NCBI GenBank assembly: GCA_022072055.1
Contig: JAJVIK010000007.1
Span: forward strand, 513,442 to 577,441
Reading direction: 5' to 3'
Length of the DNA stretch: 64,000 nt
Origin: a bacterium
GTDB lineage: Bacteria > Hinthialibacterota > Hinthialibacteria > OLB16
Shown here: positions 13,325-60,241 of the stretch, in pieces
Numbering within the stretch: the first letter of the stretch is position 1
How the letters are laid out: each line of letters starts with the position of its first letter
The notes under the pieces: model-generated
What the model was told of the DNA's origin: nothing
What the model saw: only the letters and a program-made list of their open reading frames with translations
The model's database searches: none
Made by a program: the position numbers and the translations under genes

Positions 13325-13723
13325 TCAGCGCCTTGCCCAGTTCTCCAGTCGCAGATCCGGGATCCTTCCGAAGCGCTTCACATTGTTTGTGACCAAGCAG
13401 TAATCGAGCATGAGGGCGCTTGCGGCGATGATCAAGTCAAAGTCGTCGAGAACCTGGCCCTTCCGCGAAAGGTCTGCTTTCAGTGACGCGTAGGTTTCCA
13501 TCACGCCTCGAGTTATCCCGATCACCGGGAAAACTTCGATGAGTTGGCGAACATTTGCCGTGTTTTGGCGAGGGTTTTCCGATTTCTCCGCCCCATGCAG
13601 GAGCTCTCCGTAGCTGATCATCGAGATCGCTTTCGGGAAAGGTTCTTTCTCTTTGAGGGTCGCGAGAACAGACCTATTCCCTCGCAGGATGAAGACGAGG
13701 ATGTCGGTATCAATCAAAAACAC
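13325..13723 (-). CDS. vapC: PIN-domain toxin VapC (probable GTG start)
   Basis: VFLIDTDILV PIN N-terminus; no in-frame ATG, GTG at 13723 overlaps the antitoxin stop. Confidence 0.7.
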   Translation of the reverse strand: MFLIDTDILVFILRGNRSVLATLKEKEPFPKAISMISYGELLHGAEKSENPRQNTANVRQLIEVFPVIGITRGVMETYASLKADLSRKGQVLDDFDLIIAASALMLDYCLVTNNVKRFGRIPDLRLENWARR

Positions 13724-14024
13724 GAAGCATTTTCTCCCGCCGGGATGAAAACCGCCGGGCTTTCCGGATCGAATCCGCAATCTCCTCGGCCGACCTTGAA
13801 TCCTTCCAGGTCCCGGCCAGCTTCAAGAGCTCTCGCGTGGCCTTCGCTGGGTCCTCCTCCGGTCGCGAGAGGCCCTCCTGGATGAGTGTGACCACCTCCT
13901 GGCTGATGGACCGGTTGTTCCTTTTCGCCCTTGCCCCCAGGGCGCGATACAAGTTGTCGTCCATTCCCTTGACTTGCAGATTCGCCACGATGGTCTCCCA
14001 TTCCAATCCTGACCCCTCAATCAT
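13710..14024 (-). CDS. vapB: Ribbon-helix-helix antitoxin (VapB/FitA-like)
   Basis: N-terminal beta-strand then helices (ANLQVKGMDDNLYRALGARAKRNNRSISQEV), RHH-like; overlaps the PIN gene. Confidence 0.6.
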   Translation of the reverse strand: MIEGSGLEWETIVANLQVKGMDDNLYRALGARAKRNNRSISQEVVTLIQEGLSRPEEDPAKATRELLKLAGTWKDSRSAEEIADSIRKARRFSSRREKMLRVFD

Positions 14025-14210
14025 CCTATCGGGTCTTTCATGAGAAGGCAACCGAATTTCATGAAAGGGCATCCGAACCGCTCTGGAATCCTTCGTGGTT
14101 AAGGTTCACCAGGGTTCTTCGACACCGGCAAACTCGATATACTCTACCCTCACTTCCGCCGACCTCTCCAAGCCGCGAGGGACGCGGTGGTGGTGGCGGG
14201 CTAACCGAGG

Positions 14211-40485: not shown

Positions 40486-40722
40486 AATTTCCGGCAAGAG
40501 GCCACGATCATACGGGAACTTGAGATTAGGAAAAACGAGATCGAGAAGCTGTGCACGAAGCATTCTGTCCGACGCCTGGAAGTATTTGGCTCCTCGGTGG
40601 AAGGCCGGTTTGACCCCGAGGCCAGTGACCTAGTAGTCTTGGATTCCCGCTTTCGCGGGAATGACGAATATCAGGGACTCCTTCAAGAGCTCGCGCGTCT
40701 TCTGCAGTCATCTTCGCCGTAG
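40486..40722 (+). pseudogene. Remnant of an MNT-type nucleotidyltransferase (HepT/MNT antitoxin family), no start codon, C-terminus replaced by repeats
   Basis: Open frame encoding IRKNEIEKLCTKHSVRRLEVFGSSVEGRFDPEASDLVVLD, then the repeat-encoded DSRFRGNDE; absent from the ORF track. Confidence 0.55.
40641..40669. repeat. Short palindromic element, family A copy 1 (GGATTCCCGCTTTCGCGGGAATGACGAAT)
   Basis: Perfect 7-bp-stem hairpin; identical 29-mer at 59506-59534. Confidence 0.6.
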
Positions 40723-43082: not shown

Positions 43083-46000
43083 ATGAGAATCCGCCCATTC
43101 TCGCTCTTGGCGTTTCCTCCGTTGCTTTTTTGCCTCCTTGTGCCTGGGGCGCGAGCCGCCACGTTCACGGTCACCAACACGAACAACAGTGGGGCGGGAT
43201 CCCTGCGTCAGGCGATCCTGGAGGCCAACAGCGTGCTGCCTCCAGAAGCGGTGTTTATTCATTTTAACATTATCGGAATGTTCGTGTTCCCGATTATCAA
43301 TCCCTCTTCTCCGCTTCCCAACATCCTTCGTCCGGTCACCATCGATGGAACCACTCAGCCGACTTCCAACAACCGCGTGGCCATCCAAGGCATTAACGCG
43401 GGGGCCAACGCGGATGGTCTCCATTTCGGTCCCAACTCCGATGGCAGCGTGGTCCGCGGTCTGGTTATCAACAGTTGGAGCGATGACGGCATCGAGCTTG
43501 AGCAGAGCGATGGCACGGTGGTGGCCAGGAATTGGATCGGAGTCGATTTCGCCTTGGGGATGGTCGATCTGGGTAACGGCGCGGCTGGAGTTCATGTCAA
43601 TAATTCGTCCCACACAAGTATTGGTGGACTCACCGCCGCGGACCGAAACGTGATTTCAGGAAACAACGGAAACGGTGTATGGATCATTAATGGCTCCACT
43701 GGGACTCATGTGATCGGAAACTACATCGGAATTGGCGCTGATGGAGCCACCGCCGTCCGCAACACGAACACGGGGGTCCTTATTGCGGCCTGCTCCGACA
43801 ATTATGTCGGTGGTCCGACAGTCGGGGAAAGAAACATCATTTCCGGCAACGGAAACGGAGTGACTGTGCTGGGGGCCAACGCCAGGAACAATGTGATCCA
43901 AGGAAACTGGATTGGAACCAGCGCGAATGGTTCTGCCGACTTGGGGAATGTGGTGGATGGCGTTCGGATCGAATCGGCGCAAAACACGCTGATCGGAGGG
44001 GATGCATCGTTTGAAGGCAACCCGCCGGGGAATGTCATTTCGGGAAACGACATGGCGGGAGTCCACATTCTGGGGGCAAGCCGCACCTTCATCCAGGGAA
44101 ACGCCATCGGGAAGGATGGCAGCGTGGTGGTCGCGATCCCCAACGGAGGGGATGGAGTTCTCGTTGAAGCCGAGACGCTGGGAGCATGGCCCCGACACAC
44201 GGTCATCGGCGGCAGGGGAGGACTCGGCAACGACATCTCACACAATCAGCTGAGCGGGATCGCGATCGAGGATGGAACCGGTGTGCTGATCCAAGGAAAC
44301 AGCCTCTCCGGGAACGGCCAATATGGCGTACGCCTTCGTAGCGACGACAATGTCGTGGGCGGCCCCAGCCCCGAGGACGGCAACGTGATCGCCTTCAACG
44401 GCCGAAGCGGAGTCTATGTAAACGCATCGAGTGGAAATTTGATCGGCGGGGCCACCGAGGAAAGCGGGACCTTCATCTTTGGGAATCAGGAACATGGCGT
44501 CCTGATCAGCGGTCTCACTGGAGAGAACAATCGGATCGAGGGGTGCAATATCGGACGCACCGTGGGGGGGGGCGCATCGGGAAACCTCCGAAACGGCGTC
44601 CGAATCAGCATGTCAAGCAACAACATCGTGGGGGGAACGGAGCCCCACAAGGCCAACGTCATTGTCGCCAACCAGGAGGGGGGCGTGGCGATTCTCAGTG
44701 AGCTCACCCACGGCAACCGAGTTCAAGGAAACGGGATCGGGGTCAGCCTCGAGATTGTAAACAAAGGGACCTACTCCAACTCTGTTGGGGTGTTGATCGA
44801 TGGCGCCAAGAACAACCTGATCGGCGGAACCGAGCCGGGCGCGAGGAATCTGATCTCAGGTAATGACGGGGATGGCATCCTTCTTCGCAACTCCGCCTCA
44901 AACAACCGCATTCAAGGCAACCTGATCGGCCTCGCGGGGGATGGAGTCTTCGGTGTCGGCAATGGCGCAGCGGGGATCGAAATCCTGAATTCCCCCAACA
45001 ACCTCATCGGCGGCACCATGCCCGGCGCGCGCAATGTGATCGCGGACAACAGCGACGGCATCTTTATCCTCGGAGGAGCCCTCTCCGCGAACAATGTCAT
45101 CCGGGGGAATTACATTGGGACCGATGTCTCCGGCGCGCTGGCTCGAGGGAATCATGTTAACGGGGTCTTCGCCCAAGCGGCGGAATTTGTGGTCGGCGGG
45201 ACCGAACCGGGCGCCGGAAATCTGATTTCCGCGAACAGGCTGCGAGGAGTGTTTCTCTCCAGCTTCGATTCCACTCACTGCCGGGTCCAAGGCAATCGGA
45301 TCGGAACCGACGCCTCCGGCATGGCCGCGCTGGGGAATGGAGGCGACGGGGCCCTCCTGGAGAGCACGATCCAGTGCGCCATCGGCGGAACCGCGCCGGG
45401 CGCGGGCAACCTCATCTCCGGGAATGGCGGGAATGGTGTCTGGCTGGTCACCGGAGCAAGCGGAAATGTTGTCGCGGGCAACTTCATCGGCACGAATATC
45501 ACTGGGGACACAAGTCTCGGGAACGGCCAGAGCGCGGTCCTTATCGAGGACGCCCAATTGAACCGGATCGGGGGAAACCAGCCCGGCGCCGCCAACATCC
45601 TCTCCGGCACCAACCAATATGGGGTCCACATCAATCATCCGCTGGCCAAGGAGAATCGCATCGAGGGCAACTTCATCGGGACCGACATCACGGGCTCATT
45701 GCCCCTCGGCAACAGGTTCGGCGGAGTGTTGATTGTGGACGCCTCGGACAACTATATCGGCGGGACAACACCCGGCGCGGGGAACTTGATCTCCGGAAAC
45801 GGAGGCTCCGGCATCCGCCTGTTCAAGACCATGAACACCCCCGGAAGAACCTTCATTCAGGGCAATCGGATCGGAACCGACGTCACCGGAGTGTTGCCGC
45901 TGGGGAACATGAGTCGAGGCGTCGACCTTTCCGCGACAGTCGGAGTGGAGATCGGAGGGATCACCGAGGGCGCGCGAAACCTGATCTCCGGGAACGGGTT

Positions 46001-47342
46001 CTCCGGAATTCTGTTCCACGATGAGGCGCGCGAAACCCTGGTCCAGGGGAATTTCATCGGGACCGACATCACCGGGCTTCTGCCGGTTCCGAATGGTCTT
46101 GATGGGGTCTTCATCGAAAACGCCCCAAGCAATCTGGTCGGAGGCGCCACTCCCGGCGCGGGAAACCTGATCTCCGGGAACGCCCGCTATGGCGTCTATC
46201 TCCTCGATAGCAAGGCGGTCGGGAACCGTGTCCAGGGGAATCGCATCGGCACGGATCTCACCGGTTCCTCGGATATCGGCAACGCCTCGGCGGGGATGTA
46301 CATCAAAGCCGCGACCGGCAATGCTCTAGGCGGAACCGGAGCGGGCGAGGGGAATCAAATCGCCTTTAACCTCGCCGGGGTGACCATCCTTTCCGGCTCG
46401 ATGAACCCCATCCTCTCCAACTCGATCTTCTCCAATGATGGCCTTGGAATCGATCTTGGCGAGGACGGAGTCACCGCCAACGACGAGATCGACTCCGACA
46501 CCGGCGCGAACGATTTCCAAAACTATCCGATCCTCACCGACGCTCGAATCGCCGAGGCCCAACCGGACAACATCCTGTCGATCACAGGAACCCTGCACAG
46601 CGCCACAGCCACGGAGTTCCTGCTTCAGTTCTTCGCAAGCGAGATCTGCGATGCTTCCGGTTTCGGTGAAGGAAGGGTCTTCATCGGTTCGGCCACTGTT
46701 GTGACCAACGCCTCCGGAGACGTCACATTCACATTCGATTTTCCCATCCAACTTACTGGAGCTCTCCAGCTCACCTCAACCGCCACGGACCCCATCGGCA
46801 ACAGCTCGGAGTTCTCCCAGTGCCTGGAGGTGGTCGGCATTCCGACCCCCACTCCGACCGCGAGCGCCACGCTCACCCCCACCTCGACCCCATCGCCGAG
46901 CGCCTCGCCCACGGAGACCGCGACAGACACGCCAAGCGCCTCTCCGACTCAATCGTCCTCTCCCTCGGCGACCTTCACCGGGCAACCGACCGTCACCGCG
47001 AGCGCAACCCCCTCGGCGACCGCCACGGGACAGCCAACATCCACGCCGACCGCGACCTCCTCATCCGCTCCGAGCGCAACTCCCACTCCCACAACCACGG
47101 GTAGCCTACCGGCGACGTCAACTCCCACTCCCACCACGACCGGCAGCCAAGCGGCCACCCCCACGGCCACTTCCACCTGCGCGCCGGACTACAACCTGGA
47201 TGGGCTGGGGGCGATCGACGCGCGGGACCTTCTGCAGCTCCTCGCCGCGATCCGCTCAGGCGACCCCCAAGCGGACTTCAATTGCGATGGCGCGGTGGAT
47301 GGGGATGATCTGCTCGAGTTCAGTGGGAGGTGGAAGGAATAG
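43083..47342 (+). CDS. Giant secreted right-handed parallel beta-helix repeat protein with Pro/Thr-rich linker and C-terminal dockerin-like domain
   Basis: Signal peptide; tens of PbH1-like repeats (NxIxGNxIGxxxxG); dockerin-like Ca-binding loops DYNLDGLGAIDARDL and DFNCDGAVDGDDL. Confidence 0.8.
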   Translation: MRIRPFSLLAFPPLLFCLLVPGARAATFTVTNTNNSGAGSLRQAILEANSVLPPEAVFIHFNIIGMFVFPIINPSSPLPNILRPVTIDGTTQPTSNNRVAIQGINAGANADGLHFGPNSDGSVVRGLVINSWSDDGIELEQSDGTVVARNWIGVDFALGMVDLGNGAAGVHVNNSSHTSIGGLTAADRNVISGNNGNGVWIINGSTGTHVIGNYIGIGADGATAVRNTNTGVLIAACSDNYVGGPTVGERNIISGNGNGVTVLGANARNNVIQGNWIGTSANGSADLGNVVDGVRIESAQNTLIGGDASFEGNPPGNVISGNDMAGVHILGASRTFIQGNAIGKDGSVVVAIPNGGDGVLVEAETLGAWPRHTVIGGRGGLGNDISHNQLSGIAIEDGTGVLIQGNSLSGNGQYGVRLRSDDNVVGGPSPEDGNVIAFNGRSGVYVNASSGNLIGGATEESGTFIFGNQEHGVLISGLTGENNRIEGCNIGRTVGGGASGNLRNGVRISMSSNNIVGGTEPHKANVIVANQEGGVAILSELTHGNRVQGNGIGVSLEIVNKGTYSNSVGVLIDGAKNNLIGGTEPGARNLISGNDGDGILLRNSASNNRIQGNLIGLAGDGVFGVGNGAAGIEILNSPNNLIGGTMPGARNVIADNSDGIFILGGALSANNVIRGNYIGTDVSGALARGNHVNGVFAQAAEFVVGGTEPGAGNLISANRLRGVFLSSFDSTHCRVQGNRIGTDASGMAALGNGGDGALLESTIQCAIGGTAPGAGNLISGNGGNGVWLVTGASGNVVAGNFIGTNITGDTSLGNGQSAVLIEDAQLNRIGGNQPGAANILSGTNQYGVHINHPLAKENRIEGNFIGTDITGSLPLGNRFGGVLIVDASDNYIGGTTPGAGNLISGNGGSGIRLFKTMNTPGRTFIQGNRIGTDVTGVLPLGNMSRGVDLSATVGVEIGGITEGARNLISGNGFSGILFHDEARETLVQGNFIGTDITGLLPVPNGLDGVFIENAPSNLVGGATPGAGNLISGNARYGVYLLDSKAVGNRVQGNRIGTDLTGSSDIGNASAGMYIKAATGNALGGTGAGEGNQIAFNLAGVTILSGSMNPILSNSIFSNDGLGIDLGEDGVTANDEIDSDTGANDFQNYPILTDARIAEAQPDNILSITGTLHSATATEFLLQFFASEICDASGFGEGRVFIGSATVVTNASGDVTFTFDFPIQLTGALQLTSTATDPIGNSSEFSQCLEVVGIPTPTPTASATLTPTSTPSPSASPTETATDTPSASPTQSSSPSATFTGQPTVTASATPSATATGQPTSTPTATSSSAPSATPTPTTTGSLPATSTPTPTTTGSQAATPTATSTCAPDYNLDGLGAIDARDLLQLLAAIRSGDPQADFNCDGAVDGDDLLEFSGRWKE
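46839..47177 (+). repeat. Low-complexity Pro/Thr/Ser-rich linker-coding repeat inside the beta-helix gene
   Basis: About 113 codons of T/P/S/A with a reiterated TPTPTTTGS unit. Confidence 0.6.
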
Positions 47343-47373: not shown

Positions 47374-47628
47374 TCAATAGTGGTACCTGCAGGCAATAAT
47401 GGTCAGTGTTTCACCCTCCACTTCATAAACGAGGCGGTGTTCACGGTCGATTCGCCTTGACCAACAATTCCTCAGCTGCCAACGAAGAGGCTCAGGTTTT
47501 CCGATTCCCTGGAATGGGTTTCGCTGGGTGTCTTTGATGAGCTCATTGACTCGCTTGAGCATCGCTTTGTCGGTCCGTTGCCAGTGGAGATAATCCTCCC
47601 AAGCCGCCTCCGTGAAGAGGATTCTCAA
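47374..47628 (-). CDS. yoeB: YoeB toxin (Txe/YoeB family mRNA interferase)
   Basis: Near-consensus YoeB sequence (WEDYLHWQRTDK...WSRRIDREHRLVYEVEGETLTIIACRYHY). Confidence 0.9.
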   Translation of the reverse strand: MRILFTEAAWEDYLHWQRTDKAMLKRVNELIKDTQRNPFQGIGKPEPLRWQLRNCWSRRIDREHRLVYEVEGETLTIIACRYHY

Positions 47629-47631
47629 ACT

Positions 47632-47889
47632 CTACTCCTCCTCCGCAAGTTGCCGCTCCTCAGCCTTTCCCGAGCGAGCATCGGCCAACGACTTCATCAA
47701 CCTCTCCTCATTCCTTGGACACCGCAACAGGTACGCCGTCTCCTCCATTGACTCGTAATCCGAAAGAGAAAGGAGTACGGCTGGCGGATGGCCTGAACGC
47801 GAAATGATCACCGGCTCGCAGTCCGCCTCGATACGATCCAGGACGGTCGTGAGGTTCTTCTCGAACTCCGCAAGAGATACAGTTTCCAT
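47632..47889 (-). CDS. yefM: YefM antitoxin (Phd/YefM family)
   Basis: 85-aa ORF 3 nt upstream of yoeB with Phd/YefM-like N-terminus (PVIISRSGHPPAVLLSLSDYESMEET). Confidence 0.85.
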   Translation of the reverse strand: METVSLAEFEKNLTTVLDRIEADCEPVIISRSGHPPAVLLSLSDYESMEETAYLLRCPRNEERLMKSLADARSGKAEERQLAEEE

Positions 47890-53899: not shown

Positions 53900-53924
53900 A
53901 GCGGGTAACGTCAGCGTGTGGCAC

Positions 53925-54020
53925 CTGGAGGGACACGCTCCGTCGTGTCCGGGCGCGAGGGGCCAAGGGACGCGACGGAGCGCGTCCCTCCAACGCAACA
54001 TCCGAGTGAGATAGGCTCTA
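53925..54020. repeat. Mosaic GC-rich palindromic repeat, copy B3 (inverted orientation; long imperfect hairpin)
   Basis: Reverse complement aligns with 17122-17225; about 24-bp stem pairing GGAGGGACACGCTCCGTCGTGTCC with GGGACGCGACGGAGCGCGTCCCTCC. Confidence 0.6.
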
Positions 54021-54030
54021 AGTTGGGGTG

Positions 54031-55311
54031 TCAGTTCCCGACCGGATCGAGCAGAAACGCGCGGTATTTCCCGTTAATCGTTCCCTCTCCCACAATCTGG
54101 CCCTTGTTGTTGATGTCCTTCGCGATCAAAAGGACCCAGCCTTTCCCATCCACAAGCTGGTTGGTCAGATCATAGAGCGCTCCATCTTTCCACAGGACCG
54201 CGGAGCTTTTCGCGCCGATCCGGTCACTGATCTGGTTCCAGAGTTGACGGACCCAGCGGAACTGCTTGAATCTGTTGTAGAACTTTTGCGCGAGGGGAAT
54301 GTCGATTCCGTCCCCGACAATTTCACCTCGATCATTGAGGGCGAGCGGCCGACAACTCTCGAAAGACTTCATCGCAAGGAAAGCATGGGTTCCGTTGTCC
54401 CAGAGGAAAGGTTCGTATTCGTCAAAATCTCCACCGGTGGGGAAAGCCCCCGCCACTTGACCGCGCTGGTTTAAGGCCGCCGCCGAGCTGCCCTTCATGC
54501 CGCTTAGATGAATGTCCCGCATCCCTTTGTCCGGAGTCCAAACAAAGGCGTGCTGCTCGCCGCTTGCGGTGGAGCCGTATCCGGCGATCCAGCCGGAGGA
54601 GTTTACCGCGGCAGGGTGGACAACGGGGCCTCCGAGATCACCCAAGTCCTCAAAACCACATTCCGAGGTCCATCGGAAGAGGCGTCGATAGGGCCGAGGG
54701 GGCGCCCTTTTCGGACCCTCCATGTCCTGCGCGGCCACCACGAAGGCTCCTCCCGATCCGAAAAGAACGTCCTCGATGGAGGTGAATCCCGTGATGGAAA
54801 GAACAACCTCCTCGGCTGAGGCAGACCGGATGAGGTGAATTCTCTTTGGCTGTCTCAGCGGCGCGCCCGCGCCATACACTCCGAAGGCGCCGCCATAGAC
54901 CGAAGGACCACCCGGCGTGAACTCCTCCACAGTTTCCACAACGAGGATTCTCCCGAGGGGGTCGATTTCGACCGCTGTTCCCGTGGTCCCCTGGGAGAGG
55001 CCCAGGTCTTTCATTCCCGATTCTCTTGTCCACAGAAAGGGATGGGTGACGAAGGGTGGAACAAACTGTTGCATGTTGCCGGGAGACGAATCTTTGGGGC
55101 GCGGAACCGCGGCGCTCCCGACCACCTCGCCTCGATCATTGATGGCCACGGCACGCACTTGCGCGTGCTTGGAGAGAACCCCCAGATCGGTGATGCGATA
55201 ACGAGGTCCCGAGGGCCAGGCCAACAACCACCACAAGAAAAGCGCCCCGAATGCAAAGACCGCCGCCTGGAGGAACGTCTTACGCTGGGTTATTGATTTC
55301 CCCTCAGCCAT
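54031..55311 (-). CDS. HAF-repeat family extracellular/anchored protein, paralog 1
   Basis: N-terminal hydrophobic anchor, PSGPRYRITDLG, HAF-like repeats (INDRGEVVG, QHAFVWTP), C-terminal GKYRAFLLDPV. Confidence 0.7.
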   Translation of the reverse strand: MAEGKSITQRKTFLQAAVFAFGALFLWWLLAWPSGPRYRITDLGVLSKHAQVRAVAINDRGEVVGSAAVPRPKDSSPGNMQQFVPPFVTHPFLWTRESGMKDLGLSQGTTGTAVEIDPLGRILVVETVEEFTPGGPSVYGGAFGVYGAGAPLRQPKRIHLIRSASAEEVVLSITGFTSIEDVLFGSGGAFVVAAQDMEGPKRAPPRPYRRLFRWTSECGFEDLGDLGGPVVHPAAVNSSGWIAGYGSTASGEQHAFVWTPDKGMRDIHLSGMKGSSAAALNQRGQVAGAFPTGGDFDEYEPFLWDNGTHAFLAMKSFESCRPLALNDRGEIVGDGIDIPLAQKFYNRFKQFRWVRQLWNQISDRIGAKSSAVLWKDGALYDLTNQLVDGKGWVLLIAKDINNKGQIVGEGTINGKYRAFLLDPVGN

Positions 55312-55347
55312 GATCCAAGGCCCTGTATTTCGGGATAAACGGTTCCT

Positions 55348-55740
55348 CTATATCACTTGAACACACGGTCCTGAATCGAGCCGCGACGCTCTCCTGGCGA
55401 ACCCTCGGTCGAAGGTGGCGAACGCCTCGGAACACGAGCTGCTTCCCCAGTGAAGCGCGTCGGCAAAATCAATCCCCCGTTCATAGGCCTCCAGCGCGGA
55501 CACGACCGCGATGGGGTCTTCCAGCACAACCTGAGAAAGCCCGCAGAGCCTTCTGAACGATTCGAGGATCACCGTTCTCGGCAGCTCGTAAGTGTATCGG
55601 AGCACCCATTCGCACTCGAGGAGGACTGTCTTCGGGATGTGGATGGAATTGGCTTCAAAGAGCTCAGTCGCTCGGCGCGCCTGCGCGGGATCATCCCGTG
55701 TCAGGAGGCGAACCAGAATGTTGGTATCGACCGAGATCAT
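55348..55740 (-). CDS. vapC: PIN-domain toxin VapC
   Basis: MISVDTNILVRLL start; 4-nt overlap with the upstream antitoxin gene. Confidence 0.75.
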   Translation of the reverse strand: MISVDTNILVRLLTRDDPAQARRATELFEANSIHIPKTVLLECEWVLRYTYELPRTVILESFRRLCGLSQVVLEDPIAVVSALEAYERGIDFADALHWGSSSCSEAFATFDRGFARRASRLDSGPCVQVI

Positions 55741-55988
55741 CTTTGTCTCGACACACCCTTGCGGATCGCGCCCTCCATTTCGGCGAGCGACTTGCGCGCT
55801 CCGGTGTAGCCCGTGCAGCCGATCACTTCGCGGAGCGTGGTGGCGGGGAAAGGTTGGGTGGGGCGAAGCAGGACCCCCCCGGAGTGCTCCTCCACCAGGA
55901 ATTCGACCCCCGGGCCCCATCCGTGACTTACCCGGATGGCCTTGGGGATGATGATCTGCCCCTTGCTGGAGAGTCGCGTGGTTTCCAT
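55737..55988 (-). CDS. vapB: AbrB/MazE/SpoVT-type antitoxin VapB
   Basis: SpoVT/AbrB swapped-hairpin signature (SSKGQIIIPKAIRVSHG). Confidence 0.75.
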   Translation of the reverse strand: METTRLSSKGQIIIPKAIRVSHGWGPGVEFLVEEHSGGVLLRPTQPFPATTLREVIGCTGYTGARKSLAEMEGAIRKGVSRQR

Positions 55989-56062
55989 GTTCCCCCTCCT
56001 TGGTAAGATTACGGTAAGATGATCCTACCGGCGGCGGACAGTTCGGTCAATGCGAAGAGAAG

Positions 56063-57316
56063 TCACTCCACCGGGTCAAGCAGGAACGAGCGCGTGTTTC
56101 CCTGGAAGGTCCCCTCGCCCACAATCTGTCCCTTGTTGTTGATGTGCCTGGCGGACCAAAGGACCCAGTCGTCCCCGTCCACAAGCTGGTTGTTCAGATC
56201 ATATAACTCCCCATCCTTCCACAGGAGCGCGGAAGCCCTCTCCTCGAGCCAGTTCTCGCCCCAGTCTTCGAGCCAAGGGACAGCCCAGGCGGCCCAAGGT
56301 CGCTGCATGAGCGCTGTCAAAATCCTCTGGGTGGCGGGACGGTACGATCCGCCCCCGACTATCTCTCCAGGATCGTTGATATCTTGGGCCTCGCAACGTT
56401 CGAAATGCTCCACGGGGAGCGGGGTGTAGGTTTCCTTCTCCCAGAGGAAGGGTTTCGACCCACCCCACCCGCCGCGTGACCAGGAAAATCCCACGACCTG
56501 ACCTCGGTTGTTCAACCCCTGTGCGTGGCTGATCCGCTCGTCGGTCGGATGGATGTCCCGCATCCCTTGAACCGGAGTCCAGATAAACGCGTGCTGTTCC
56601 CTGCTCGCCGTGAGGGCATATCCGGCAATCCAACCGTTTTCGTTCGCCGATTCTGGAATGACTTGGTTGCCCCCCAAGTTCCCGAGACTTTCATATCCCT
56701 TCTCCGCGCTCCACCGAAGAAGGTCTTCAGACTGGGTCCCCACCGTGGTCAGGCCGCTCGCCGGCATCAGCAGGGTCTCATTCGGTCCGAGGGCGACCTG
56801 ACCCAAGGAGATGGCGCGAGTTTCGGTCAGGATGATGTGCGCGCCGGTGGCCGAATGGATCACATAGGTGCGCTTTATGGGTTGTGGTCGGGGAGTCCCA
56901 TAACCTCCCGGCCCACCGTAAGGTTGCACGGCGGATGGGGAGAGGTCTTGATGGTGCTCAACGACCAGAATCCGGCCGCGTTCGTCAATGTCCCGGGCGG
57001 AGCCGGAATTGCCCTCCAAGAGGCCGAGGTCCCTTATCCCCGACTCGCGGGTCCAGAGAAAGGGGTGTGTGACATAACTCCGGCGTCGTCCCCCCTCGGA
57101 AGGGGTGGCGGATTCAACCGGAAGGGGAACCGCCATGCCGCCAACCACCTCGCCACGCTCATTGAGGTCGGCCACTTGATCCGCCACCCTGCTCGCCCCG
57201 ATTTGGAGGTCGGTGATGCGATAGCGGGGACCGGAGGGCGGAGATGAAAGGAGCAGGAGGGCAAGCGCGCCGAGGGCGACAATGGCTGAAAGGAGGAACG
57301 CGATTCGCTTCGGCAT
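56063..57316 (-). CDS. HAF-repeat family extracellular/anchored protein, paralog 2
   Basis: Same architecture as 54031-55311 (PSGPRYRITDL, HPFLWTRESGIRDLG, QHAFIWTP, C-terminal RSFLLDPVE). Confidence 0.7.
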   Translation of the reverse strand: MPKRIAFLLSAIVALGALALLLLSSPPSGPRYRITDLQIGASRVADQVADLNERGEVVGGMAVPLPVESATPSEGGRRRSYVTHPFLWTRESGIRDLGLLEGNSGSARDIDERGRILVVEHHQDLSPSAVQPYGGPGGYGTPRPQPIKRTYVIHSATGAHIILTETRAISLGQVALGPNETLLMPASGLTTVGTQSEDLLRWSAEKGYESLGNLGGNQVIPESANENGWIAGYALTASREQHAFIWTPVQGMRDIHPTDERISHAQGLNNRGQVVGFSWSRGGWGGSKPFLWEKETYTPLPVEHFERCEAQDINDPGEIVGGGSYRPATQRILTALMQRPWAAWAVPWLEDWGENWLEERASALLWKDGELYDLNNQLVDGDDWVLWSARHINNKGQIVGEGTFQGNTRSFLLDPVE

Positions 57317-57356
57317 TCGAGCAGCTCACGCTCCAGCAAAACGAATGAAGGCGATG

Positions 57357-57545
57357 TTAGTCCTTGGTCGCCATGGGGGCGCCGGGGTGAACAATCCGCT
57401 CGGGATGTTCACGCTCCGCCTCGCGGAGTTTCTCGCAGAATGTGTGCAGATCAGACCCGGCCTCCCTGAAAAGGTCCGCCCCGGCCCGGCGAGTCTCCTC
57501 CACAATAGGGTCATCCCACGTGTAAACCTCATCGTTGGGCATCAT
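57357..57545 (-). CDS. Small acidic hypothetical ORF downstream of the disrupted PIN gene
   Basis: About 62 aa (MMPNDEVYTWDDPIVEETRRAGADLFREAGSDLHTFCEKLREAEREHPERIV); start uncertain. Confidence 0.25.
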   Translation of the reverse strand: MMPNDEVYTWDDPIVEETRRAGADLFREAGSDLHTFCEKLREAEREHPERIVHPGAPMATKD

Positions 57546-58033
57546 CAAGCAGTTCCTCCGGTGTACAGATCGTCGGTGTTGAGAATCCTTCTCTTTGGTT
57601 AATTTGCCGCACTCGACGGCGAATATGACCGTTGGCGATATGCCTGCAGTTCCATGTTGCCAGAAACATCGTGCCCCAAACAGAGGCAGGGGCAATGTGA
57701 AGGGCATCACGCGCGGCATCCGTGGGCAGGTCAGATTTCCTCGAGATAGACACTGGCCAGCCGCTCCACTTCGGCGGACACATGGAGTTCTGAAAACCCG
57801 CGCAGCGAGGCCAGTCGCTTTCTCGCCGCATCCTGGTCACCGCGTGACGCCTCGGCCAGGACTACCTCGGATATGAAGACCTCGTACCCCGGAAGCGCCT
57901 CCTTCCACCACCGACGAGTGATCTCTTGGTGGGCCAGAACAAGGATGTCCCTCGACGAGCGGGCTTCGAGATAGCCGACAACTGAAGTTTCGAGGTACAG
58001 GCGTGGCTTATCAGCCATTATCGATGGTTCCAC
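57529..58033 (-). pseudogene. PIN-like nuclease gene split by an apparent frameshift near 57731-57745
   Basis: N-terminal part (RLYLETSVV...YEVFISEVV) ends at stop 57731; C-terminal part (DALHIAPA...FLATWNCRHIANG) continues in another frame. Confidence 0.5.
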
Positions 58034-58059
58034 CTTTCATCTGCGTCATACTTGGAGGA

Positions 58060-58437
58060 TCACTCGACCGGGTCAAGAATGAACCCCGCGTCTTTCCCCT
58101 TGTACTTTCCCACGCCGATGATCTGGCCGTTGTCGTTAATGTCGTTCACACCCTTCGCGTTTCCCTCTTGGCCCACCGCAAAACCGAGATTCTTCATTCC
58201 GCTTTCGTGAGTCCACAGGAAGGGGTGAGTAATCTCATCCGTGCCGGACTCGACCCCGTAGTGGCCGACCACAACCCCATCGCTATTGATGCTGGTCGGC
58301 CAGATCTCGCCATCCCCCAATTGCTCCAGCTCCGTGATCCGATACCTCGGCCCTTCCGGCGCCCGCCGAAGGTAATAGAACGAGGCAAGGGCGGCGGACA
58401 GGAGAACAAGGATGAGGAGGAGATTTCGCTTGGGCAT
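58060..58437 (-). CDS. HAF-repeat family protein, short paralog 3
   Basis: About 125 aa from MPKRNLLLILVLLSAALA; keeps the N-terminal PEGPRYRITEL, one repeat and C-terminal GFILDPVE. Confidence 0.6.
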   Translation of the reverse strand: MPKRNLLLILVLLSAALASFYYLRRAPEGPRYRITELEQLGDGEIWPTSINSDGVVVGHYGVESGTDEITHPFLWTHESGMKNLGFAVGQEGNAKGVNDINDNGQIIGVGKYKGKDAGFILDPVE

Positions 58438-58459
58438 CGGAATTCCTCGTTGCACAACC

Positions 58460-60241
58460 TCAATTCGCCGCTTCTCCCAGCCCGGACCGCCCCTGTCCCT
58501 GCTCCAGGACCCAATCGCGGATGAACTGCGGTGGGAGCTGGTGCAGCGAGAAAAGCCGCTCCCCGCGATAGGCCACTGTGGCCAGCGCCGGGAGCTCCGC
58601 CAAGACCTTCCGCGCCGCCGGATGAAGGTCGCTATAGCGGCTCCCGATGCACGCGAAGACCTGAAGGCCGGGATTGGCGAGCTCCGCCGAGAGCTCGAAC
58701 CGAAACACTTGCAGCCCCTCCGGAATCGCGGGCCAGCCCTCCGGGCCCTCGCGATAGACCGCAGCCGCTCCGCCCTCCAGCAGCAGCACATCCCCCGGAC
58801 GCGCGAGTTCCTGCAGTTTCGGATTGAGCCGATGCATCGAAACCCCCAGGTAATCCAGATCAAACCCCAAGTGTTTCGCCCCGGAGGGCCCGCCGATCAA
58901 GGGCGTGTAGTAGATCAAGTTGTGCGGGTAAACGCGCAGAGATGGAAACAACACAGCCGTCCCCAATGCGGCGAACAGGCTCCACCGAATCGGGCCGGAG
59001 AAACCGGGGTTCCACCGCGACAAGGCCCAACGCCAACCCTCGCGCAGCTCCATCGCGGCGAGCGCACACATCGGGCCATAGGCCGGCAGCAGCAAGCGGA
59101 CCCCATCGAACTTGGGCACGCTCGGAATCGAACTGATCGCGAGCGGCAAGGCGAACGCCACCCACAGCAAACCTTCCTCGCTTCCCCAACCGATCTCGCG
59201 TGTTCGGAACAGGCGCGCGAGTTTCCGAAGCGCGCGCACCGCCACGGGAACCACCAGAAGTGGCGGGAGCGCGAGGGCCGTGAACACCCACGGGTAATGC
59301 CAGGGGGCAAGATTCCAGTGGTTGTAAACGACTCCGAAATAATAGACCGGGATCTTCAGGTGGTTTCCGATGAAGTCGGCGTACTCCTTTATCCCCTTGG
59401 GGAAATCCAGCCACAACGCGGGCCAGAGCAGAAAGGCCGCGAGCAGCGCAAGGAGAGAGAGGAGAAGCGCCATGAGCGCTTCCCTGAGGCTCCGTCGGAG
59501 CGGCTCGCCGCTCCTGGATTCCCGCTTTCGCGGGAATGACGAATCTTCAAGGGGCAGGGATTCCTCATTGTTCCCGCCGCGCCCGTCATCCCCGCGAAAG
59601 CGGGGATCCACGCCCATCGCGGCAAGCTGTGTGGAGAGCACCCAGAACCCAAGGAGTGCGACCAGGTACATCCCCTGCACCTTGGTGAGCAGCGCGAGCA
59701 CAAACAGGACCAGCGCCACGACCTTCCACGCATGGCTTCTGTTCCAGCCCATGAGCGCGAGCGTGGCAAGGCCATACAGCGCGCCAATCAGCCCATCGAT
59801 TCCGAATCGAACCCCATGCAGCACAAAGCGCGGGCTGCCCAGGAACAGCAGCGCCGCAATCAATCCCGCCTTTCGGCCCATCCGCGACGCGAGAAAGGCA
59901 TACGAGGCCGCGCACCAGATTGAGGTGACCAAGGCCACAAACACACGACACGACCCAAGCTCGCCAAGGCTTCGTCGAAACAGGGCGTTGCAGAATCCGC
60001 CCCCGATTTCCATCAGCGGCGGGTGGCGGTGCGCGTCGGGGAAGTACGCGCGCGGCTCGAAAAGACTCGGGGCCGATTCAGCGGTCCACCAGGACTCCAG
60101 CCAGCGACTCCAAGGGACCGCGCGGTTGTAGAACAGCCAGGAATCCCAGTAGGGTCCGAACCCAGGACTGAGTAGGATGAGTCCCCAGAGGATGATGGCG
60201 CCAAGGAGAGTGGCCTCAAGGCCAAGCCGACTTCGGATCAT
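58460..60241 (-). CDS. Polytopic membrane glycosyltransferase, GT39/PMT-ArnT-like, carrying a repeat-encoded hydrophilic insertion
   Basis: 593 aa, many TM helices N-terminally and a soluble C-terminal domain; family assignment from architecture only. Confidence 0.55.
   Translation of the reverse strand: MIRSRLGLEATLLGAIILWGLILLSPGFGPYWDSWLFYNRAVPWSRWLESWWTAESAPSLFEPRAYFPDAHRHPPLMEIGGGFCNALFRRSLGELGSCRVFVALVTSIWCAASYAFLASRMGRKAGLIAALLFLGSPRFVLHGVRFGIDGLIGALYGLATLALMGWNRSHAWKVVALVLFVLALLTKVQGMYLVALLGFWVLSTQLAAMGVDPRFRGDDGRGGNNEESLPLEDSSFPRKRESRSGEPLRRSLREALMALLLSLLALLAAFLLWPALWLDFPKGIKEYADFIGNHLKIPVYYFGVVYNHWNLAPWHYPWVFTALALPPLLVVPVAVRALRKLARLFRTREIGWGSEEGLLWVAFALPLAISSIPSVPKFDGVRLLLPAYGPMCALAAMELREGWRWALSRWNPGFSGPIRWSLFAALGTAVLFPSLRVYPHNLIYYTPLIGGPSGAKHLGFDLDYLGVSMHRLNPKLQELARPGDVLLLEGGAAAVYREGPEGWPAIPEGLQVFRFELSAELANPGLQVFACIGSRYSDLHPAARKVLAELPALATVAYRGERLFSLHQLPPQFIRDWVLEQGQGRSGLGEAAN
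59506..59599. repeat. Family A composite palindromic element (29-mer plus inverted partner CGTCATCCCCGCGAAAGCGGGGATCC) inside the glycosyltransferase ORF
   Basis: Left arm identical to 40641-40669; right arm is its reverse complement with compensatory changes; translated in-frame as a loop. Confidence 0.6.

Follow-up and report, generated by a model that had tools for sequence, protein, structure and literature searches.

In the window, the 64,000-nt stretch of bacterial DNA analysed here, a two-gene cassette of toxin-antitoxin type has probably had its toxin gene broken by a genuine, recent insertion of a single nucleotide. The insertion, placed within minus-strand positions 57742–57733, would have hit a VapC-like PIN gene and spared the small acidic partner gene beside it. 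As the sequence stands, translation of the PIN gene stops at codon 95. The truncated product lacks the C-terminal 67 residues, and with them D104, which is invariant in the family, the motif WNCxHI and two of the five PIN β-strands; it would probably be unable to form a nuclease active site. The intact partner gene has its own Shine-Dalgarno (SD) sequence and is presumably still expressed, so that the locus may be described as an 'orphan antitoxin plus toxin remnant'. Toxin remnants with orphan antitoxins are the usual decay route of chromosomal toxin-antitoxin modules.

The PIN-like gene lies on the minus strand. Its N-terminal half (57731–58018) runs for 95 codons from the ATG at 58018 through the ATC at 57736–57734, encodes 95 aa, and ends at a premature TGA stop codon (57733–57731). 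The likely SD sequence is AAGGTGG (58036–58030), 11 nt 5' of the ATG. The C-terminal half (57529–57732) is in the +1 frame and extends from the GAC at 57732–57730, which encodes D96, to R162 and the TGA stop codon at 57531–57529. It opens with the codons GAC CTG CCC ACG GAT GCC and contains no plausibly placed start codon for separate translation. The two frames meet in GAG GAA ATC TGA C (57733–57742, minus strand), where the junction falls after the T of TGA and one nucleotide is surplus. The sequence-only reading had given the gene an extent of 57529–58033, with halves in different frames meeting at about 57731–57745. The frame change held and could be narrowed to a surplus base within 57742–57733; so did the 57529 end, but position 58033 is an upstream in-frame GTG, and both the NCBI and the Logan gene calls start at the ATG at 58018. 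The site quoted in that reading, GGAAATCTGA, is 57740–57731 on the minus strand. At NCBI the 95-aa product of the N-terminal half is MCG3197279.1 (GHCLOJNM_01764), named 'MAG: hypothetical protein [bacterium]' and encoded on a contig of 646,555 bp. A literature search on SRR10609163, GHCLOJNM and MCG3197279 found no paper.

Alignments and a structural model indicate that the two halves are parts of one VapC-type PIN-domain protein. Conceptual removal of one base within 57742–57733 joins the halves into a protein of ~161 aa, for which 746 homologues were found, the full-length ones being 152–171 aa long. The split pattern is not due to chance: the best homologue, found among 5.8 billion database sequences, covers 96% of the query at 64% identity (E = 1.8e-59). 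When the joined protein was aligned with 20 full-length homologues, and likewise with a set of 119 homologues, the junction was crossed without a gap. In the 20-homologue alignment the N-terminal half keeps the family-invariant residues E10, Y16, S22-R23-D24, H30-Q31, W38 and G60, and the C-terminal half keeps the invariant P98, D104, H107, W122-N123-C124-x-H126-I127 and C151-T152-P153-E154-E155. Against the Pfam profile PF01850, the separate N-terminal half scored E = 0.024 and the C-terminal half had no match, while the joined protein scored 17.2 bits (E = 0.0079), the gathering score being 23.6 bits. With the same profile and a threshold of E <= 0.01, matches were found in 19 of 21 aligned family members (best E = 1.6e-6), and several relatives carry the NCBI name 'VapC family toxin'. 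Compared with VapC toxins, then, the PF01850 sequence signal is weak but consistent among relatives.

The AF2 model of the joined protein, which was built on the homologue alignment, had a pLDDT of 92.1 and a pTM of 0.87. It contains the five β-strands of a PIN fold (E6-9, E46-50, E76-78, E118-120 and E149-151), interleaved with helices. When the model was compared with the PDB by Foldseek, VapC toxins ranked first (3zvk, 6a7v, 5x3t, 5wzf, 3tnd and others), with probability 1.0 and TM scores of 0.6–0.7 on the target; the VapC alignments spanned ~150–160 columns, that is, both halves, and the top 30 matches were almost all VapC or PIN proteins. Over its whole length the joined protein is thus predicted to have the fold of VapC toxins such as Rickettsia felis VapC2 (3zvk), M. 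tuberculosis VapC11 (6a7v) and VapC20 (5wzf), and Shigella VapC (3tnd). With invariant columns on both sides of the junction and a VapC fold extending across both halves, the halves do not come from different families, and the sequence-only description of a PIN-like nuclease split by a frameshift agrees with the gap-free alignment to single-frame homologues of ~160 aa and with the modelled fold.

Of the acidic active-site positions, two (E10 and D104) show no variation in the 20-homologue alignment and a third, E56, almost none. The fourth acidic position expected from VapC toxins appears in this family to be the N of the invariant WNCxHI, a mapping made by spacing and by a weak hhalign match (probability 0.93%). 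That match came from comparing the family profile with the window's own canonical VapC (13325–13780), and at a probability of only 0.93% the comparison was discarded as evidence. The canonical VapC belongs to a pair that, by eye from the sequence, is intact (13325–14072); in it a small antitoxin-like ORF precedes the canonical-looking PIN/VapC-like ORF. The window's PIN-like copy differs further from VapC toxins in being frame-broken and below the Pfam gathering score. No characterised family member was found: the family profile had no sequence match in the PDB, and there is no NCBIfam or PADLOC model for the PIN-like protein.

The lesion is best described as a 1-nt insertion, because taking out one base restores the gap-free alignment. 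Homology is in the N-terminal frame through E94 and in the C-terminal frame from D96/L97, which confines the surplus base to 57742–57733. Dropping c57734 or t57733 gives YLEEIDLP (E-E-I-D-L-P), which fits the E-I-x-L-P of the closest relatives, and dropping one A of GAAA gives E-E-S-D-L-P. At position 95, 64 of the 119 homologues carry L, 22 carry G and 20 carry I, and none carries S, and E-I-x-L-P is frequent among the nearest genomic relatives; the surplus base is therefore most likely a T or C in ATC-T-GAC, where there is no homopolymer, and less likely an A. S at position 95 is present in a distant cyanobacterial branch, so an extra A keeps some probability. The junction with the extra base reads GAAATCTGACC, and the alternatives shorter by one base read GAAATCGACC, GAAATTGACC and GAATCTGACC. 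Since no relative exceeded 64% identity in any searched collection, we infer the ancestral state from distant homologues only. An exact-DNA scan of JGI metagenome contigs for GTCTATCTCGAGGAAATC N{0,1} GACCTGCCCACGGATGCC, i.e., the site with or without the extra base, gave 0 matches.

The partner gene (57357–57545, minus strand; MCG3197278.1) is intact and overlaps the 3' end of the PIN-like gene by 17 nt. Its SD sequence, GGAGG (57559–57555), lies 9 nt 5' of its ATG. The sequence-only reading had noticed that a small acidic ORF follows the PIN-like gene; this ORF, 57545–57357, encodes 62 aa with a pI of 4.78 and proved to be a member of a conserved partner family. A homologue search with the 62-aa partner gave only three relatives, the query being short, and was replaced by an HMM iterated over the downstream regions of 80 related loci. 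The 80 loci were taken from GTDB genomes and had the highest scores among at least 594. A partner-family ORF of 55–80 aa lies directly 3' of the PIN-like gene in 76 of these best 80 loci, often overlapping it, with an offset that is typically -43 to +6 nt. Three of the four loci without a separate partner are at contig ends, and in the fourth, L056, the partner is fused in frame to the PIN-like protein. The partner motif is (M)W-x-D-P-I-V-E-E-[VI]-R-x-x-R-E-E-x-A-x-x-F-N-Y-D-L. The possibility that the invariant C-terminal P-E-E codons are conserved as the partner's SD sequence (CCG GAG GAA) was rejected, as GGAG or GAGG is found there in only 20 of 79 loci.

Natural in-frame PIN-partner fusions occur in several lineages (L056:3001-3666; P0145, P0204, P0207, P0208, P0210 and P0236). 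The fusions are Rosetta-stone-type evidence suggesting that the PIN-like protein and the partner act together, and they would be unusual if the partner were a classical labile antitoxin. Neither the window's partner nor five relatives matched any model in Pfam, NCBIfam or PADLOC, and no AbrB, RHH, Phd/YefM or MerR DNA-binding domain was recognisable in the partner with these collections. The cassette shares with VapBC loci the small size of the PIN-like protein (~160 aa), a coupled or overlapping small partner gene, and variable genomic contexts. Tight linkage in the same operon is seen in 76 of the 80 loci and, in the window, as the 17-nt overlap. Unlike in VapBC, the order is reversed, the PIN-like gene being first and the partner second; in the window there is no upstream antitoxin gene, as the partner is downstream and the interval between the PIN start and the preceding HAF gene is only 41 nt. 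The most economical reading of the cassette is that of a VapC-like toxin with a downstream antitoxin, a reversed-order analogue of VapBC, in which the partner would be given its antitoxin role by linkage and by the natural fusions only. Toxin-first pairs of a PIN gene and a 'hypothetical' antitoxin have been predicted in Synechocystis, e.g., slr1383-ssr2317 (Table 1, PMC4963859). The window cassette resembles slr1383-ssr2317 in having a PIN gene and then a small unannotated partner, a likeness that is a literature lead only.

The PIN-like family is large: at 50% identity it comprises 4,401 clusters when the cut-off is E <= 1e-10, and 496 when it is E <= 1e-30. Its members are spread over cyanobacteria, where they are frequent, Planctomycetota, Acidobacteriota, Bacteroidota, Nitrospirota and many other phyla. 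The two closest homologues have unrelated gene contexts, P0002 and P0004 lying beside LeuRS and GH31 genes and beside UDG and two-component genes, respectively; they are thus not positional orthologues. Such unrelated neighbourhoods are as expected of a mobile cassette. The PIN-partner cassette appears to be widespread and uncharacterised.

Loss of the toxin has occurred repeatedly in this family. Four of the 80 homologous PIN-like genes (again, the best of at least 594) contain internal stop codons, at independent positions in otherwise well-conserved genes: TGA at residue 42 (L016:1040), TAG at residue 37 (L027:3091), TAG at residue 51 (L026:2673) and TAA at residue 63 (L035:3178). Each stop codon is a single nucleotide change from the consensus residue, and in each locus the partner is intact. 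A further homologue, P0242, is frameshifted near residue 136. Because the 80 loci are the best-scoring of at least 594, the true damaged fraction is probably higher than 4 of 80. The window copy would be another case of this recurrent outcome, in which the harmful component is lost and the partner kept. That only the toxin is lost, in the window and in 4 of 80 loci, points indirectly, on genetic grounds, to the PIN-like protein as the harmful partner. The window locus resembles known decayed or orphan toxin-antitoxin loci in combining one disabling lesion in the toxin gene with an intact partner that has its own SD sequence, an outcome reached independently in 4 of 80 loci; it differs from those known loci in that its partner is assigned the antitoxin role from linkage and natural fusions only.

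Given that real disabling mutations are found in 5% of homologous loci (the best 80 of at least 594), a genuine lesion in the window is not unexpected. The extra base might instead have come from the reads or from polishing, the gene being intact in the organism. Such a sequencing or consensus error would account for a C-terminal half that is perfectly conserved at 21 of 21 positions and for a lesion that is single; the source is a MAG, and the short A run GAAA is one possible site of the extra base. We nevertheless regard an error as unlikely. Logan contig SRR10609163_21746 (3,757 bp), which comes from a de Bruijn-graph assembly made separately, matches 54382–58138 at 100% identity, junction included. 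The Logan assembly of SRR10609163 thus serves as a check on the assembler but not on the reads. Logan discards k-mers seen only once (PMC12424806), and each k-mer of the identical 3,757 bp was thus present at least twice in the raw run. Further, no other frame-broken gene was found in ~55 kb of window coding sequence, nor among the ten large genes checked: the large ORFs of the window are open (1419, 946 and 808 aa), and nine of ten match Pfam, mostly over the profile from end to end (1-414/414, 1-213/213, 2-339/339). The assembler is an improbable source of the extra base, given that a second, independently made de Bruijn assembly reproduces the site exactly and that no other gene in the window was seen to be frame-broken. 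The residues of close relatives also speak against an error in the A run, since they favour an extra T or C, outside the homopolymer. The alignment and the Logan assembly together give what is expected of a pseudogene, namely a frame disruption relative to intact homologues that is present in the underlying reads. A variant of the genuine-insertion explanation is that the population is mixed, the assembly representing the broken-toxin allele of a polymorphic locus in which intact-toxin cells coexist. The recent age of the lesion would suit a mixed population, as would the repeated origin of toxin-inactivating alleles in the PIN-like family, but the Logan contig is unbroken through the site, and a collection of 15 billion proteins held no intact 161-aa allele, the best full-length match being 64%. 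We consider a mixed population quite improbable, and in any case it is a sub-case of the genuine insertion, not an alternative to it.

Programmed +1 frameshifting was considered as a further explanation. In the manner of prfB or antizyme, the ribosome would pause at the weak UGA-C in AUC UGA C (57736–57730), skip the U, and make full-length PIN protein with the residues E-I-D-L-P. The stretches considered as candidate shift sites were GAGGAAAUCUGAC and CUCGAGGAAAUCUGACCUGCC. The prfB (RF2) +1 site is SD-N3-CUU UGA C, and programmed frameshifting of the +1 type is essentially not known in bacteria outside prfB. Like the prfB site, the window junction has an in-frame UGA-C with a short SD-like GAGG just 5' of it, 2 nt from the AUC codon. 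The zero-frame stop lies exactly at the frame junction, skipping of the U gives the residue pattern of close relatives, and the C-terminal half is fully conserved. These features fit recoding, yet the comparison with homologues does not. None of the 80 related loci (GTDB, the best of at least 594) has a shift, each being one tblastn segment covering residues ~4–158 and hence in a single frame across the junction. Similarly, none of the 119 full-length top protein matches is shifted and the closest homologues are single ORFs, and among the best 150 cluster representatives (50% identity), nearly all full length, there is no truncation near profile position ~95. The site itself also differs from that of prfB. 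The P-site codon AUC is non-slippery: when worked out by hand, tRNA-Ile on AUC cannot re-pair on UCU, where the third position only could wobble-pair, in keeping with the sequence-only view that the junction is not an obvious slippery site. The SD match is 4 nt long with a spacing of 2 nt, compared to 3 nt in prfB, and it consists of Glu-Glu codons at positions where the family commonly has E, D or K. For the 151-nt RNA at the site, folding was no stronger than for shuffled sequences (z = 0.02). Finally, it is not unusual for a random insertion to land within one codon of a stop in this frame, which has five in ~68 codons, or ~7% per codon. We thus find programmed frameshifting highly improbable as an explanation of the junction. 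Equally remote is the chance that AUC-UGA-C with its upstream GAGG functions as a +1 recoding site giving full-length toxin only when UGA termination is inefficient (low RF2, stress). If recoding were true, the site would be a translational switch on a toxin, with the dose set by termination efficiency, and the first prfB-like +1 frameshift outside prfB. Reassignment of UGA was rejected as well, because homology continues in the +1 frame and not in the zero frame, which meets TGA and then TAA within ~45 codons. The earlier judgement that a 1-nt indel pseudogene or a sequencing error was likelier than programmed frameshifting is thus upheld, given an alignment that becomes gap-free on removal of one base and a site that is unconserved in homologues.

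The genuine insertion would be very recent, because the C-terminal half keeps the conserved positions, has no stop, and shows a normal C/N identity ratio. In comparison with the 119 homologues, the C-terminal half has retained 21 of 21 positions that are >=90% conserved and 17 of 17 that are >=95% conserved. No stop occurs in its 67 codons, and the zero frame has five stops over the same stretch. In its ratio of C-terminal to N-terminal identity the window copy ranks 19 of 119, as an intact gene might. The C-terminal half, with its open frame and its full set of highly conserved positions, thus gives no evident sign that selection was relaxed once the lesion had arisen. A sequencing error at the extra base, or bypass of the frame, would leave the C-terminal half just as undamaged. 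Unusual residues do occur just before β-strand 4, at 57667–57678 (residues 114–118), where the window copy has D117M, Y118F and H114W. Position 117 is D in 84% of the 119 homologues and M in none. D117M and H114W are the only hints of relaxation; the three changes may reflect early relaxation or a lineage-specific change predating the frameshift.

The window locus is, in sum of these comparisons, most probably an ordinary pseudogene in a toxin-antitoxin-like cassette, and very unlikely to be a recoding signal. The lesion itself matters little, being one more toxin gene caught just after inactivation. For annotation, 57529–58018 should read as a pseudogene rather than as a 95-aa hypothetical protein. 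There is modest wider value in the cassette, with its unusual E/E/D/N motif set (WNCxHI) and a 55–80-aa partner without a family model, and this is the only part worth a separate look.

The cassette sits between genes for HAF-repeat proteins, all on the minus strand. Directly upstream, across a 41-nt spacer, is a short HAF-repeat protein of 125 aa (58060–58437; TIGR02913, 30.0 bits), which consists of the N-terminal and C-terminal ends only. Directly downstream, across a 40-nt spacer, is a HAF-repeat protein of 417 aa (56063–57316; 76.9 bits). A third HAF-repeat paralogue, of 426 aa, is found at 54031–55311 (81.8 bits) and is ~45% identical to the 417-aa protein. All three exceed the TIGR02913 cut-off of 22.65 bits, and the placing of the PIN-like gene between HAF paralogs in the sequence-only reading is thereby confirmed. 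Between the two long paralogues lies a second toxin-antitoxin pair, which is intact and consists of an AbrB/MazE-type antitoxin gene (55737–55988, minus strand; TIGR01439, 36.8 bits; PF04014 in the Logan gene calls) and a canonical PIN toxin gene (55348–55740, minus strand; PF01850 in the Logan gene calls). The same-strand array of 54031–58437 thus reads HAF, PIN pseudogene plus partner, HAF, AbrB plus PIN, HAF, with spacers of 36–74 nt, so that toxin-antitoxin cassettes alternate with genes for HAF-repeat surface proteins. Promoter and terminator scans of 53900–58700 gave no more sites than shuffles.

Several other features of the window were noted. A YoeB/Txe-like toxin with a Phd/YefM-like antitoxin (47374–47889) is, by eye from the sequence, another intact pair. 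Positions 43083–47342 encode a secreted protein of 1,419 aa with dozens of 'N-x-I-x-G-N / G-x-x-G-V' β-helix-like repeats, which are followed by a Thr/Pro/Ser-rich linker and then a short dockerin-like C-terminus. A palindromic element of ~96 nt (59515–59610) lies in frame within an ORF for a 593-aa membrane protein (58460–60241). Its arms, TGGATTCCCGCTTTCGCGGGAATGACG and CGTCATCCCCGCGAAAGCGGGGATCCA, are 27 nt long, 93% complementary and 42 nt apart, and the element encodes DPRFRGDDGRGGNNEESLPLEDSSFPRKRESRSGE. A further exact copy of its 18-nt core is found at 40643–40660, giving 3 matches compared to 0.21 expected, and the element looks like a REP/MITE-type insertion tolerated in a coding gene.
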